From Macrostomum lignano (taxonomy: Eukaryota), in NCBI GenBank assembly GCA_002269645.1, contig NIVC01000190.1, positions 124,001 through 188,000 of the forward strand: a stretch of 64,000 nt of DNA. Direction: 5' to 3'. This document shows, in pieces, positions 33,137-40,539 of this stretch (the stretch's first letter is position 1; every line of letters starts with the position of its first letter). The translations under genes were made by a program, and so were the position numbers. The notes beneath the pieces are model-generated. The model was not told the origin of the DNA. It saw nothing but the letters and a program-made list of their open reading frames with translations, and did no database searches.

Positions 33137-36100
33137 TCATTTTGATGGTGCACCATCGGCAGCTGGCGGAGACTCTGTGTCAATGGACAGGCCGTGCATG
33201 TCGGGAATGAATTTGGCCAGGGCGGCCTTCACCATGCGATGCTGGGCCAGGGTGCGGGCGCCGCGAAACTCGTCAGCAACAATACGCACCTGTGTTGGCA
33301 GGCAAGAAGGGATAGATAGACAATATAGCGGTAATTAACGTATTGTAATTAAAGTGGAATCGATCGCAGGCGATACTATCAGGACCGGTTTCTGTCCCTG
33401 CAGACTTCGATCGTGAAGACGTTTCACAAGCTCGAAATTTCACATCGTTAAAAAGGCTAGTTAGTGAGTGACAGTGACCGACATTTTTAGTTTTCGACAA
33501 TGTGAAACTTCGAGCCTGTGAAAGTGACCGACAGTTTTAGTTTTCGACGATGCGAAACTTTGAGCCTGTGAAAGTGACCGACAGTTTTAGTTTTCGACGA
33601 TGTGAAACTTCGAGCCTGTGAAAGTGACCGACAGTTTTAGTTTTCGACGATGTGAAACTTCGAGCCTGTGAAAGTGACCGACAGTTTTAGTTTTCGACGA
33701 TGTGAAACTTCGAGCCTGTGAAAGTGACCGACAGTTTTAGTTTTCGACGATGTGAAACTTCGAGCCTGTGAAAGTGACCGACAATTTTAGTTTTCGACGA
33801 TGTGAAACTTCGAGCCTGTGAAAGTGATCCGACCTAATGGGCTGGCAAAAGAGAGTTCACCCATTGGCAAGTTTTGCGCCACACTCTATACTTTCTACTC
33901 ATCAGTAGACTAACTCTGACATACGCAAAGTCTAAGTCATCTTTTTTTATTTTACAACCGTAATCCTCATTCAGTGTTTGTTATCGTAGAATTTTCGTTC
34001 GAAATTCGATATGGCGATGTGCATACAGAAATGAAAAAAAACTTTATAGTGTAGTCAACTGACATTGTGAACTCATATAAAAGGCACACTTGCTAACAGT
34101 AGTAGCAGTAATTGGCTACATCAGGCCGAAAGTTTTCAATATTTCAAATTTTCGGGTAAGTTTCCATGAGCAGTCACTCAAATGCCGACCTGAATCTGTC
34201 CACACACACATGCACTCTAGCTAGAGTAAATCAGAATCTTTCATACCGAATGTGGCTTATTTACATTTCAGTAGGATACAAGACAGACTCTATTTGCAAT
34301 TGGTGAGCAACGCCTCCCAGATGGCGCGGGTTCACACGAAAAGTCACTTGAACTAGATTGTAAGAATTGACGTTTGTTTGTCAAATATTTTCGACAAGTT
34401 AAAACTTTTTCCAACATTCATTCTATCAATTTGCAACCAAGTAGCTAGCTACCAAACTATTGAGGCAATTTTAGTCCCAAGTTGAAATGATATTAAAAAC
34501 TATTATTGATTGGATATATAATAGTCAACAACATTAAAAAGTCGTTGGTCGAAAGACACTGACACTGTACACTGCATCACACCGTGGCGCAAGTTACGTC
34601 ACTTGCAGTTGAGGTGAGAGAGAAGTCGCCTCTCTCGGTAGGGTGGCGGTTTTGACTGTTGCTGAGTGTATATATTGCCTTTCTTACGACTCTATTGATG
34701 TTCATTAAGATTTTCGTTTAGAAAATTAAAATTCTATATATATTAATCCTATATCCTACGTCGATCGTGCATGTATACTGTGCCTAAAATAATAAGAATG
34801 GCACAGCTCGACTCATTGGTTTCATGAATCTAATTTTATCATCCTTAGCTGACTGTGTAACAAAATAGGGGTGCTTTCACAAAGTCGAAATTTTACAACG
34901 TCAAAAAACTTAATATAACAAGAACATGCAGTAGTTTTCTACGTAGTGAAATTTCGACCTTATGAAGTCTTGCTAAAAGTTTTCGATGCTATGAAATTTC
35001 AACCTAGTCCTTGTAACCGAGTTTTGTATTACCAAAAAACTTTTACGCCCAAACAACCTAGCCACCAGCTACTTGTAATGCAGTTTGGGAAAATAAAGAA
35101 AAAACTTTCCAGCAGAAATAAAGAGACTAGCACTTTGTTGCAAGCCTCTTTGAAAGCAATTTCTCATTCAGGTGTTGACTGTCAATATAATATTATAGGC
35201 TTGGCTAAGGGCGTTGCCTGAATGAACAAATTTTGAGTGACGGATCTGTTCTTTAAACCAGATGCGTTTTCGTCGAGTTTACACCTGATAATTCCACGAC
35301 AATAGAGTAAGAGACTCTTTAATATTCTAATTAAAGAATGTACTAATATAGAGGTAAGAGGACAGCGAACTAGTTTATCGCAGGTAACAGTAAACACCAT
35401 CTCGTCAATTAAGGTCAGTTGCAGGCTTGTTCAATCAAACGGAGATACGCATTCACACAGAACCGACAGCTTTGCTGCTCCACCGCAGTCGTTTAACATG
35501 GTACTGGATTTGTATCTACAGACCGAATTCTCGATCCGCAAATTATTGTTTGGCTCGCCAGCAGCCCACAGTGTGCTATTCAAAGCGATATTGCAGGACA
35601 CCCAGATCCAGCCACCTGCGGGCTCAGGACTGCCAGGAATCTGCCAACCGCCCAACCAGAATGACCGTCCGACGCTGTAATTTTCGTGCAATAAATCGAC
35701 ATGATTCATTTCCGCGATATTCATTACGTCGGTCATGATTACCAGACCGCTTTCAGATTCGCACAACTGCCTACTCTTCATCCAATCCATCAGTTTGGAA
35801 GAGTGCAGTTTGTACTTCACTCCGCACAGGTCGTCTCCGTAGCCAGACGGACACAGCGCGCCCGCCTCGAGTCCCGGCTGCTGCTTCACAAACACCCGGC
35901 CTCTCCTGGAGCAGCCGCAGTCCCTCACCGACTTGCTGCACTTGTCGAACACGAACAGCTGGCACGGACCGTCAGCCAGGCTGAACGCCTGACAGCGCCG
36001 GTCTCTGGCGCACAGCATTGAGCAGCCGGCATGATTGGTGCAGGTGCCGATGGTGCGGACGAACTCACGGCGAATGCACAGAAAACCATCGATCTCCTTG

Positions 36101-39100
36101 AAGGAGTAGCTTAAGCGACATTGTTGATTGCACAACGCGTATTGGGCAACGATTATGTAATAGAGCAGCACAGCATATTTAAATGTAGATCTGGACAGCA
36201 TGCCGCTTATAGTTGTTCGTGTTGACGGTAGCTAACAAATTCAAAACTCGTCTGTTTGGCCCAGTGTCCTGAGATCTATTTCCACTCTAATATACTCAGA
36301 TATTCTAGCACAGAGATACGCAATATTCTGATTGGATAATTATGGATCCAGCAAATGGTAGCCCACGAAAAAAACTTGCCGGAATGGACTGAATGCAGCT
36401 TCTTAATTTAGCTATAGATTTTTGAAAATCCACTGTCACTTCTTCTGATATTGCTAAGTATGATATGGGTTAGCGGCTAGTGCATTCGTTGGCTAGAAAT
36501 TTCACGTGTCAAAGTTAAAGTCGAAGTTTTGCTAGTTACTTCCGCTAGCAAGGAGAGCCGCAGCCCAGTAGTCTGGCGCGGCGCTCGGACGTGCCAGCGG
36601 CCTAGGCTCGATTCCAAGTGCAGTCGCATTAATTAAAGGCTACATATTGGAATCTCGGCTTGGCTCTGCTCGTGCAATTAACGCCCAGTTTGAGGGCCAA
36701 CAACCCCCAAGGCACAGTACTACTATGGACTGCAAAATCCGGGCGTTTTGGAGGTGGGGTGGGTGTCAACCCTCCTCGCCTCTCATTGGCTGGCGCGCGC
36801 GCGCCGCAGGCGCGTGGCGCCAAGCGCCATCCAGGCGCGCGGCGCCAATCAGGCGCCCATGCCGCAGGCGCACCCTCCCGATATGTACCCCGATATGTAC
36901 ACCCTCCCGATATGTATGCCCACCCTCCAGAGCAGCAGGCGCCCATGCCGCAGAAGCCCCACTCTCCCAAGCCGCAGGCACCCCGAGTGTACACTCTACC
37001 ATGCCGCAGGCACCCCGAGTGTATACACTCTCCTCAGTACACTCTCCCCAGTACACTCTCCCGATATGTAGTCAATGATATTAGGCTAGCGAAAACTACT
37101 TATAGTAGGTGAAATTGCGTATATTTACATAAAAAAGTAGATAAAACATATTGGTAAGTGTAAATATTGGTGCATAATGCATATTAAAATATACATATTG
37201 GTGCATAATAAGTATATGAGCAGCAAAAAACACACAATGTAGGCGCATATTATTGATATATTGGCAGACGGTAAAGCAAACATAATAGCAGGTACATATC
37301 GCATTATTAGTGTAGTAGGTGCTAATAAAACATAGGTGGAAATGCACAGTAGATACAAGTATAATGCAGGTGCATATTAAAAATGTACATATTGGTGTAT
37401 AATGCATATAGGTGTACAAACTTAGGTATAGCAAAATACACACAATGATATTATCGTTATATTGGCGGACGGTAAAACAGGCAAAATAGCAGGTACATAC
37501 CGTTTTGTTAGTGTAGTAGGCAGATTCAAGTATACTGCAGGAAAATTAAACATAGGTTGAAATACACACACACACACGCAGTAGATACAAGTATAATGCG
37601 ACCATACGAGGGGCACTAGATAAGTTTCTAGCTGCGGTCGACATGTAACAGTTATAAAGATGAAACTTTCAGAGCTTTTCAAAGTACTCTCCATCAGCTT
37701 GGATGCACCGCCTCATCCGCTCAAACCAAGTTTCAAAGCAGTGGCGCCACTCTGAGTGGGATACCCCCTCAACGGCCGATCTATAGGCATCAACAGCCTC
37801 TTCGGCGGAGGAAAATCGGCACCCTCGCATGGAATTCTTGATGAATGGAAATAAAAAAAGTCACACGGTGCCAGGTCAGGTGAATATGGTGGATGACTGA
37901 GCTGCTGGAAGCCCACCGTCTGTAGAAACTCTCGAGTTCGATTCGCCGTGTGCGCACTGGCGTTGTCCTGGTGCAGCCAGAGACCTCGAACGCCGCACTT
38001 TGGCCGCGCCTCTTTAAGGCTGCTGATGACACGCGGCAGGCAGACGGTGCAGTACCAATCTGCAGTCACTGTGCGCTGGCTCTCGAGTGCTACAGTCGCA
38101 ATGTGGCCAGTCTTTCGGAAGAAAGTTGCCACCATTTGCTTGCCAGTGCTCCGACCCCTGACAACCTTGGTCGGCGGGGCTTCATCTTCAAAAGCCCACA
38201 CACGCGACTGGCATTTCCGCTCGGGTTCGTAGCAATACACCCACGTTTCGTCACATGTGACAATGTCTGTGACAGACTTCGACGTCCCTCCGCCAAACCT
38301 GTCCAGCATTTCCTGGCACCAGCTCATGCGGGCCTGCTTCTGCTCGGTGGTGAGCAAATGCGGCACCCAGCGACTGGTCAGCTTGCGGACAGCGAGGTGA
38401 TCACGAAGGATAGAAGCGACTGTCGGCGATGAGATTCCAAGACATGCCTCAATCGTTTGATACGTCACTCGCCGATCAGCCTCAATCATGCGCCGCACGC
38501 GGTCGATAGTTTCAGGTGTCGTCACTGAAACAGGTCGGCCGGTTCGACCTTCGTCTTCCAAGCTGTCTCGGCCACGCTTGAACTCCCGGAACCAGGCGGT
38601 GACGGTGGCGATGGATGGCGCAAGGTTAGGAAAGGCAGCAGACAGCCGCTCGTGGCACTGGTGAAATGTCAAGCCGCTCTTAAAATCGTAGAAAATCATG
38701 GCACGAAAGTGTTCACGATTGAGCTCCATTACAGTGCTGAAAGAGTCACAAACCTTGTTGAGATAAAATGCGACAGTGAGAGAATGGTGACAATTAGGTG
38801 CATGAAACTTTGGGGACCATGATAAAACTTCTAATTCAATATGCTCAGAAAATATGGCCTAATTTGAATAAACGGTTTGACCGCAGCTAAAAACTTATCT
38901 AGTGCCCCTCGTATATAGGTAAAATACACACTGTAGATTCAAATTAATGGAGGTGCATGGGCTAAAATACACACACGGAAGGTAAAAAGATAAGATAAAA
39001 GATAGAAGACATGATTAGCAGCAGCAGCAGAGAGCTCTCTGACAGCCGTGCAGCGCTTTATATACCCCAGATGGAGGGTGGGGAGGGTGTGATTTTAGGG

Positions 39101-40539
39101 GTGATTTTGGGTGATTCTGGTTGGTTTTCTTGGTGATTTGACCAATAATAGACGCGCTAAGCAGGTTTCTAGTATATATTCAGACCCCCCAGAACAGGGG
39201 TAGAGAGATAATCCTACTCTCTCTCTCTCTCTCTCTGTGTGCAAAATGGCTACTTTTTTATCTACTTATTATCTACTTTTTTATGTAAATATACGCAATT
39301 TCACCTACTATAAGTAGTTTTCGCTAGCCTAATATCATTGACTACATATCGGGAGAGTGTACTGGGGAGAGTGTACTGAGGAGAGTGTATACACTCGGGG
39401 TGCCTGCGGCATGGGAGAGTGTACACTCGGGGTGCCTGCGGCTTGGGAGAGTGGGGCGCCTGCTGCTCTGGAGGGTGGGCATACATATCGGGAGGGTGTA
39501 CATATCGGGGTACATATCGGGAGGGTGCGCCTGCGGCATGGGCGCCTGCTGCTCTGGAGGGTGGGCATACATATCGGGAGGGTGTACATATCGGGGTACA
39601 TATCGGGAGGGTGCGCCTGCGGCATACATATCGGGAGGGTGTACATATCGGGGTACATATCGTGAGGGTGCGCCTGCGGCATGGGCGCCTGCTGCTCTGG
39701 AGGGTGGGCATACATATCGGGAGGGTGTACATATCGGGGTACATATCGGGAGGGTGCGCCTGCGGCATACATATCGGGAGGGTGTACATATCGGGGTACA
39801 TATCGGGAGGGTGCGCCTGCGGCATGGGCGCCTGATTGGCGCCGCGCGCCTCGATGGCGCTTGGCGCCACGCGCGCGCCAGCCAATGAGAGGCGAGGAGG
39901 GTTGACACCCACCCCACCTCCAAAACGCCCGGATTTTGCAGTCCATAGTAGTCACAGTGAAGTGTACATGTCTAACGATAAATAGAGATAGGGGCAGGGC
40001 CGCTGTACACTCCTGTGTGTATGCCTGTTCAGAGGAGTCGGCGGAATGGGCAGTAATGCCTCTCGCCGGTTGTGCGACAAATATCGCTTAAAGTGCGCGA
40101 TGCACACGGCCTCTGTCTTCAAACATTTGCGTTAGACCACAACTTGAACGAATTTCAACAAAGTGAAAACAATCAAGTATTTTTAAAAACATACGGCATA
40201 ACCCACCTGATACATCTGACCGCAGCCCCCGCTGACATCCTCTACCGTGACAGAACGCGTCCCGGGAAAAGCCGTTCGCAAAGCCGACTCAATCTGCTTC
40301 TCACCGTCTGTAGCCACCCTGGTACTGTTACTATTATTATTATTATTACTATAGCAACTGGCTACTACTGAAACCAGCGGACGAGTAGTTAGTTGAGAAC
40401 ACTGACTCAGCGGTCTAGACAGGCAATGATGCTGCCGCTGAGAAGTAGAGAGCAAAAATGAGGCCAGTCGAGTTGTCGATCTGAGAAGCGACACATGGCG
40501 GCTGCCCATCGTTAGAGCTGTCACTCGTTGAAGAGACAT
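33137..40539 (-). CDS. BOLA3: BolA-like protein 3 (mitochondrial Fe-S factor). Exons 40207-40539 (alternative ATG 40509) and 33137-33289
   Basis: Exon 1 has an R/S-rich presequence plus EKQIESALRTAFPGTRSVTVEDVSGGCGQMYQ (BOLA3 signature DxSGGCG); exon 2 reads VRIVADEFRGARTLAQHRMVKAAL...DMHGLSIDT. Phase-0 GT-AG intron of about 6.9 kb. Confidence 0.92.
33475..33830. repeat. 50-bp minisatellite, about 7 copies (ACAGTTTTAGTTTTCGACGATGTGAAACTTCGAGCCTGTGAAAGTGACCG)
   Basis: Seen directly; an inverted partial unit lies at 33422-33447. Confidence 0.93.
35431..36201 (-). CDS. Intronless secreted PAN/apple-like plus C-type lectin protein (256 aa), nested in the BOLA3 intron
   Basis: Hydrophobic signal peptide; PAN-like CSMLCARDRRCQAFS...CQL; CTLD motifs WMKSRQLCES, FWLGG, WIW, LWAAGEPNN, LNDC...SVLCE. 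Confidence 0.88.
   Translation of the reverse strand: MLSRSTFKYAVLLYYIIVAQYALCNQQCRLSYSFKEIDGFLCIRREFVRTIGTCTNHAGCSMLCARDRRCQAFSLADGPCQLFVFDKCSKSVRDCGCSRRGRVFVKQQPGLEAGALCPSGYGDDLCGVKYKLHSSKLMDWMKSRQLCESESGLVIMTDVMNIAEMNHVDLLHENYSVGRSFWLGGWQIPGSPEPAGGWIWVSCNIALNSTLWAAGEPNNNLRIENSVCRYKSSTMLNDCGGAAKLSVLCECVSPFD
37607..38911 (-). mobile_element. Mariner transposon, 1305 bp, TA TSD, about 33-bp TIRs
   Basis: TIR CGAGGGGCACTAGATAAGTTT(C/T)TAGCTGCGGTC at both ends (one mismatch); TA at 37605-37606 and 38912-38913. Confidence 0.95.
37669..38729 (-). CDS. Mariner DD34D transposase with one frameshift near 37853-37859
   Basis: GRP, WVPHLL, VTCDETW, LHQDNA and YSPDLAPCD motifs; adding one T to the T7 run restores LFPFIKNSMRG...WFERMRRCIQADGEYFEKL-stop. 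Confidence 0.93.

Follow-up and report, generated by a model that had tools for sequence, protein, structure and literature searches.

A gene-less ACTACT-ended element in Macrostomum lignano and the polymerase-encoding, apparently integrase-less family to which it belongs

A stretch of 64,000 nucleotides of Macrostomum lignano DNA (contig NIVC01000190.1 of assembly GCA_002269645.1, positions 124,001 to 188,000 of the forward strand; hereafter the window, whose numbering applies wherever no other locus is named) contains a short interspersed element (SINE)-like repeat split by an insertion with long terminal inverted repeats (TIRs) and ACTACT ends. The locus raises the question of what kind of mobile DNA left this insertion, and how such DNA is copied and integrated. 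The inserted element is a single-copy, gene-less deletion derivative of a polymerase-encoding family with ACTAC ends, and we put at roughly 60% the probability of the fuller reading in which this family is replicated from its ends as linear DNA in the nucleus and borrows the integrase of an AGT-ended Polinton. Directly established within that reading are family membership, the gene content of the examined copies, target-site duplications (TSDs) of 6 bp, spliced forms of the polymerase in public contigs and a target-site preference.

A deletion derivative of a polymerase-encoding family

To delimit the element, we compared the split repeat with three intact copies elsewhere in the window. The 5′ part of the repeat (36549–36718, plus strand) is 82–85% identical to these copies and carries words at 36574 and 36605 that we take to be box A-like and box B-like, respectively; the 3′ part lies at 39953–40107 (plus strand). 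CACAGT occurs on both sides of the insertion, at 36713–36718 and 39953–39958, while each intact repeat has CACAGT or CGCAGT once at the corresponding point, showing that the flanking hexamer was truly duplicated. The element itself spans 36719–39952 (3234 bp), starting with ACTACTATGG and ending with CCATAGTAGT. Its left TIR (36719–37144, plus strand, 426 bp) comprises a terminal (ACT)2, hypervariable positions 8–27 (36726–36745) and GC-rich subrepeats, and its right TIR (39269–39952, minus strand, 684 bp, with an AGTAGT-3′ end) is expanded by extra subrepeats of 29, 57, 86 and 143 bp; the three main arm segments are 98–99% complementary between the two. A first-pass annotation of the window had described the exact 6-bp duplication, the ACTACT ends, the arm lengths, the unequal subrepeats and a length of about 1.9 kb without a nested mariner, and all of these stand, the last at 1927 bp.

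The interior of the element identifies its parent. Positions 39000–39252 correspond to the intergenic region between two head-to-head genes of longer copies with the same ends (96–98% identity to L148, L035 and L036; 84% to L066:2285–2549) and keep both start codons, with the first 13 nt of a PC4-like open reading frame (ORF; ATG at 39012, minus strand) and the first 7 nt of exon 1 of a family B DNA polymerase of the protein-primed type (pPolB; ATG at 39246, plus strand), which is all that is left of the polymerase. TIR sequence abuts this region left and right, and each junction has a short duplication; the right one (39250–39292, plus strand), where the pPolB start meets the right TIR, shows CTA microhomology and a 23-bp duplication (repeat D12). 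At 37145–38988 (plus strand) the element keeps the AT-rich inner portion of its parent's long TIR, split there by the mariner, and the parts nearest the mariner are 92–93% identical to the PC4-side TIR of the polymerase-bearing copy L148. The exact terminal 33-mer was found in the genome only at the element's own two ends, and among 42 matches to 38915–39340 only the window copy covered the whole query. The two deletions may date to free replication or to the time after insertion.

When the genome was searched with the terminal 92 bp of the element, 260 candidates came up, of which 40 were scored, and the end pattern of this family, which we call family A, matched 222 times against 0 for the reversed control. 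Its long copies measure 8.5–9.8 kb, with TIRs of about 1.3 kb in those that bear the polymerase. A sister family, B, has copies of about 9.5 kb with mostly ACTACG ends (247 pattern matches against 81 for the control); its protein is about 66% identical in the exonuclease region, and exon break-points fall at the same places in both families by tblastn. Of 32 paired copies, two of which duplicate another insertion, 31 have TSDs of exactly 6 bp and one has 10 bp; five of five further family-B pairs also have 6 bp. TIR lengths in the window and polymerase copies lie within the 100–1500 bp of Polintons, the palindromes described below exceed that range, and the short terminal tandem repeat of 2–3 nt typical of Polintons is present as (ACT)2 in family A, family B having mostly ACTACG. 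Our literature searches, whose scope lay outside Kapitonov and Jurka 2006, Repbase and Dfam, returned no description of the ACT-ended family.

Long copies encode the polymerase (PF03175, E 5e-17 and 5e-13) head-to-head with the PC4-like gene (PF02229, E 1.3e-6 in a sister-family copy and 0.034 in family A; Atlas 0.86). Together with the family-wide 6-bp TSD, this supports the annotation's proposal of a non-autonomous derivative of a Polinton-like or unclassified superfamily, in its Polinton-like form. An alignment shows OTU-like, zinc-binding, exonuclease, Vsr-like and palm motifs in the polymerase, partly named after PMC10748475, PMC11071308 and PMC8502044. Its nearest relatives outside the host are only 22–29% identical, and BLASTP against the canonical polymerase pieces tested gave E values of 0.004 or worse, indicating no close relative among them.

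The polymerase gene of L066 contains six GT-AG introns, three of which lie inside conserved motifs (DV/VSLYP, NS/LWGK and DTDS/VVY, the slash marking the break). GT..AG joints were recovered for five of the six, each in three or four of four public runs (contigs from four studies); the sixth intron sits at a repeat that the joint search skips. A further such joint lies behind the PC4-like ORF. Longer family-A copies add an ORF of about 335 amino acids (aa; L075:7726–8808) with an acidic, low-complexity N-terminus, which had no Pfam match above threshold and no Atlas match. One family-B copy (L244:8252–9180, contig C694) has the PC4 gene head-to-head with the polymerase start, and the other family-B copies examined gave no PC4 match at that position. 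Long interspersed nuclear elements (LINEs) lie inside family-B copies at L153:2310–6983, L165:3562–7043 and L244:3332–8162, and in L153 and L165 the LINE ORF is in frame with the CAG-rich first polymerase exon.

Gene content and palindromic copies

A partner of 10–25 kb with the same ends, encoding pPolB, integrase and capsid, had been predicted by the annotation and was not found: the long copies stop at 8.5–9.8 kb, and those examined showed neither an integrase nor a capsid gene. Across 417 loci, 190 matched an ACT-family TIR, 92 matched canonical integrase, major capsid protein (MCP) or packaging ATPase, and three matched both; of these three, two are short fragments and one is a nested Polinton with AGT ends. 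The first 20 loci yielded no integrase or capsid, 20 single-ended places yielded one MCP fragment of 33 aa only, 20 end pairs without polymerase had no integrase or capsid match, six oversized pairs of family B contained nested inserts and gave no integrase match, and five odd ends had no ACT-ended partner. An alternative inner-TIR motif led to 47 places, all at polymerase-type elements and none with an integrase or capsid partner. A capsid profile search returned a single M. lignano protein, the capsid of an AGT-ended family introduced below as E. The ORF lists, and Pfam scans of a selection from them, showed neither a maturation protease nor a minor capsid protein, two proteins for which no dedicated queries were used. 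In the copies examined, the ACT-ended elements showed no integrase of their own and, apart from the two short fragments, nothing of a capsid or packaging ATPase.

Among the 20 end pairs picked for lacking polymerase, 18 are giant palindromes of 6.7–9.6 kb; the others are one pair with a tandem Gypsy-like insert and one composite. Palindrome arms were 99.8–99.9% identical in all four cases measured, and Pfam gave no match for any of 79 peptides taken from two copies, one arm of each. PMC11071308 cites a reported hairpin-forming deletion derivative of the kalilo linear plasmid.

Termini, target sites and the source of the integrase

In family A, positions 8–27 of the ends are hypervariable: over 107 ends compared, pairwise identity averages 0.49 there and 0.93 at positions 37–56; the variable block exists in 59 distinct variants, and all four gametes occur in 152 of 190 site pairs. 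Five variants are exactly common to polymerase copies and palindromes, and in 10 of 32 copies the two ends of one element differ in their first 36 bases. By contrast, the terminal 22-mer of the AGT-ended AGTAGA family has 346 exact matches, the one figure we use here, as the low end variability of this family and of family E is partly imposed by the search pattern. Mosaic termini of this kind fit an exchange between co-replicating molecules.

Canonical Polintons are abundant in the genome, with 73 capsid matches and 143 scored integrase matches out of 1509 candidates, and the capsid- or integrase-bearing elements with visible ends start with AGTAG. Family E ends in (AGT)3, and its terminus AGTAGTA becomes ACTACTA by G/C flips alone. 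To compare integration sites, we counted central pyrimidine-purine (YR) steps after removing one family-B site in a (CTA)n tract: they occur in 35 of 51 sites for A, 9 of 17 for B, 23 of 33 for E, 4 of 26 for AGTAGA and 2 of 6 for the D-type family. By permutation, A differs from AGTAGA (p 0.0002), A against E gives p 0.096, and 41 of 51 family-A sites fit E better than AGTAGA. The difference between A and AGTAGA argues against the latter as helper and is compatible with E. Family E is thus, on these sequence comparisons, the likely helper of the ACT families, with which the target-site match is compatible without being proof. E-type TIRs (L118:1166 onward) also hold an internal second copy of the terminal motif.

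These observations suggest a cycle in which pPolB, with its terminal protein, vOTU, exonuclease, Vsr and palm parts assigned by motif, would prime on the 3-bp terminal repeat and could copy whatever molecule has such ends, be it a deletion copy or a fold-back palindrome. Co-replicating molecules would swap termini and so produce the mosaic 20-mer. Integration would occur in trans, with the (AGT)3-ended family E as the best candidate. The size of about 9 kb common to the elements might reflect packaging in a borrowed capsid, the step we hold most loosely. More tentatively still than the cycle as a whole, one may picture a tiered virus-satellite system, in which AGT-ended Polintons supply integrase and capsid, the intron-rich, polymerase-only ACT-ended replicon parasitises them by way of ends set apart from theirs by G/C flips alone, size-matched giant palindromes and deletion copies such as the window element parasitise both, and the recombining 20-bp block serves as a fast-evolving recognition tag in this conflict.

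Several points weigh against a borrowed integrase and against the completeness of the picture. ACTACT and AGTAGT ends differ in sequence, and past the terminal motif BLASTN found no match between E loci and ACT TIRs. Central-YR preference is common among retroviral-type integrases, so the enzyme is not identified by the match to E; the D-type family, though abundant, is represented by just six target sites (two with YR). The gene screen used three integrase, three capsid and two ATPase queries, all canonical, and divergent or intron-split genes could escape it. The census leaves out 122 of the 222 ends of family A and 147 of the 247 pattern matches of family B, one pair (on C1368) has mismatched TSDs, and the runs with spliced joints are guessed to be RNA, none being on record as such.

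Three other explanations were weighed. A bipartite Polinton, in which the polymerase element is one segment, a second ACT-ended segment carries integrase and capsid, and the window copy and palindromes are defective segments, strikes us as possible, if rather doubtful. A cognate integrase would account for the ACT ends with no need of cross-recognition, the size range is common to polymerase copies and palindromes, and bidnaviruses are described in the part of PMC8502044 consulted as bipartite, with a related PolB and matching segment ends. The screens made did not meet the second segment, however: the polymerase-less pairs, the single-ended places with their lone MCP fragment, the oversized family-B pairs and the 47 inner-TIR places gave no such element, visible-ended capsid or integrase elements have AGTAG ends, and the capsid profile found the E-type protein only. 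We consider it unlikely that the cognate helper was a full ACT-ended Polinton, now extinct, unassembled or existing only as free virus. The degraded Vsr-clade polymerase on C234 (34% identical to family A) could represent such an ancestral type, but no TIR pair or ACT end can be assigned there and the genes at that site may belong to different elements, while the near-identical palindrome arms mark many copies as very young and hence imply a recently available integrase. At that locus (L167:8190 to L169:9418), E-like genes for capsid, ATPase and integrase are situated some 15 kb away from the polymerase.

Long TIRs and non-autonomous derivatives are also typical of cut-and-paste DDE superfamilies, one of which might have captured a polymerase. 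Among these, IS3EU has TAY ends and a 6-bp TSD, hAT and MuDR have TSDs of 8 and 9 bp, and CACTA elements have CACTA ends and a TSD of 2–3 bp. The ACT-ended copies begin ACTAC, as (ACT)2 or ACTACG, after variable flanks, with a fixed 6-bp TSD; two families as far apart as 66% protein identity share ends, polymerase and exon break-points; and no transposase of their own appeared in the scanned ORFs of long copies or the 79 palindrome peptides, so that the autonomous DDE partner named by the annotation as a competing outcome did not turn up. An origin in IS3EU, hAT, MuDR or CACTA is largely refuted, and a DDE origin is highly improbable.

Nested insertions and relation to known systems

The window element is itself interrupted by a mariner (37607–38911, minus strand; inverted repeat I10) with the features of Tc1/mariner elements: a TA duplication (37605–37606 and 38912–38913), short TIRs and a mariner transposase (38729 to 37669, minus strand; Pfam HTH_48 and Transposase_1). 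The transposase has a frameshift, real or an assembly error, near 37855 in an A-run (37852–37860), and L148 holds the homologous site empty. The annotation had placed the element between the SINE and the mariner in age. Nesting bears out the former; the latter holds for the element as a sequence, but the mariner may predate integration of the window copy, a point on which a single copy is not decisive. Adjoining the element, 35431–36231 (minus strand) contains a 266-aa frame, PAN/apple and C-type lectin-like by eye, and a similar frame lies at L079:5765–6532.

At three places, an ACT-ended element contains canonical D-type Polinton sequence: a full insert that has a GAGATA duplication (L113:5828 to L116:8372, C271), a nested end (L260:865–1900, C4099) and a short fragment (L246:7012–7095, C485). 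Such sequence may reflect physical association during replication. The 40.6-kb end pair on C271 was rejected as a partner, being a polymerase copy that contains a canonical Polinton. Two ORFs, a zinc-finger-like one of 769 aa and a CIDE-N one of 542 aa, lie within a family-B pair lacking polymerase (L238:4648–9375, C126) and probably represent another nested transposon. On C200, ACTACTTAAG-type ends in L255 and L256 (positions 553450 and 718072) match, are inverted and lie 165 kb apart, and just inside both there is the same F-box ORF.

By definition, a Polinton has a polymerase as well as an integrase. The ACT family behaves like them and lacks integrase, capsid and intronless genes in the copies examined, and we therefore class it as a Polinton-derived, integrase-less satellite. 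As far as the consulted parts of PMC10748475, PMC8097293 and PMC8502044 describe Polintons/Mavericks (adintoviruses, Vsr-containing pPolB2 type), the resemblance extends to the 6-bp TSD, TIRs of at least several hundred bp, a short terminal tandem repeat and a pPolB with OTU-like and Vsr-like motifs. The ACT copies are unlike them in size (8.5–9.8 against 13–25 kb), in the integrase, capsid and ATPase genes not found and in having six spliceosomal introns, where PMC8097293, as far as consulted, describes intact vertebrate Mavericks without introns; the introner insertions in dinoflagellate elements, judging from the part of PMC11957031 seen, are a different case. Their ends, (ACT)2 or ACTACG with hypervariable positions 8–27, contrast with Polinton (AGT)2, (AG)3 and (AC)3A. 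The last of these corrects the annotation's statement that described Polintons start 5′-AG, swamp-eel Mavericks having 5′-(AC)3A//T(GT)3-3′ (PMC8097293); (ACT)2 is not among the three end motifs given in the consulted text of that paper, whose supplements may hold further ones.

The other parallels likewise rest on partial views of their sources. Butterfly Polintons without polB (10.1101/2025.02.07.637071) are similarly incomplete, still mobile and apparently dependent on functions in trans; they keep the other core genes, whereas the ACT families have their own type of end and retain the polymerase module alone. Transpovirons and eukaryotic linear plasmids (PMC11071308) are also capsid-less linear replicons of polinton-like ancestry, but the ACT elements integrate into an animal nuclear genome with 6-bp TSDs and spliced genes, and their polymerase keeps exonuclease motifs and has no helicase fusion. 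Bidnaviruses (PMC8502044) have an OTU-containing PolB and segments that share termini, while in the ACT families no parvovirus-like genes were seen and no second segment was found.

By itself, the window copy is a minor remnant. It leads to two related families that retain only a spliced polymerase module and have inserted recently, with clean 6-bp duplications, at well over a hundred places. In this laboratory animal, the action of a Polinton integrase in trans on foreign ends can be tested, as can the existence of Polinton satellites or segments and a route from virus to nuclear transposon.

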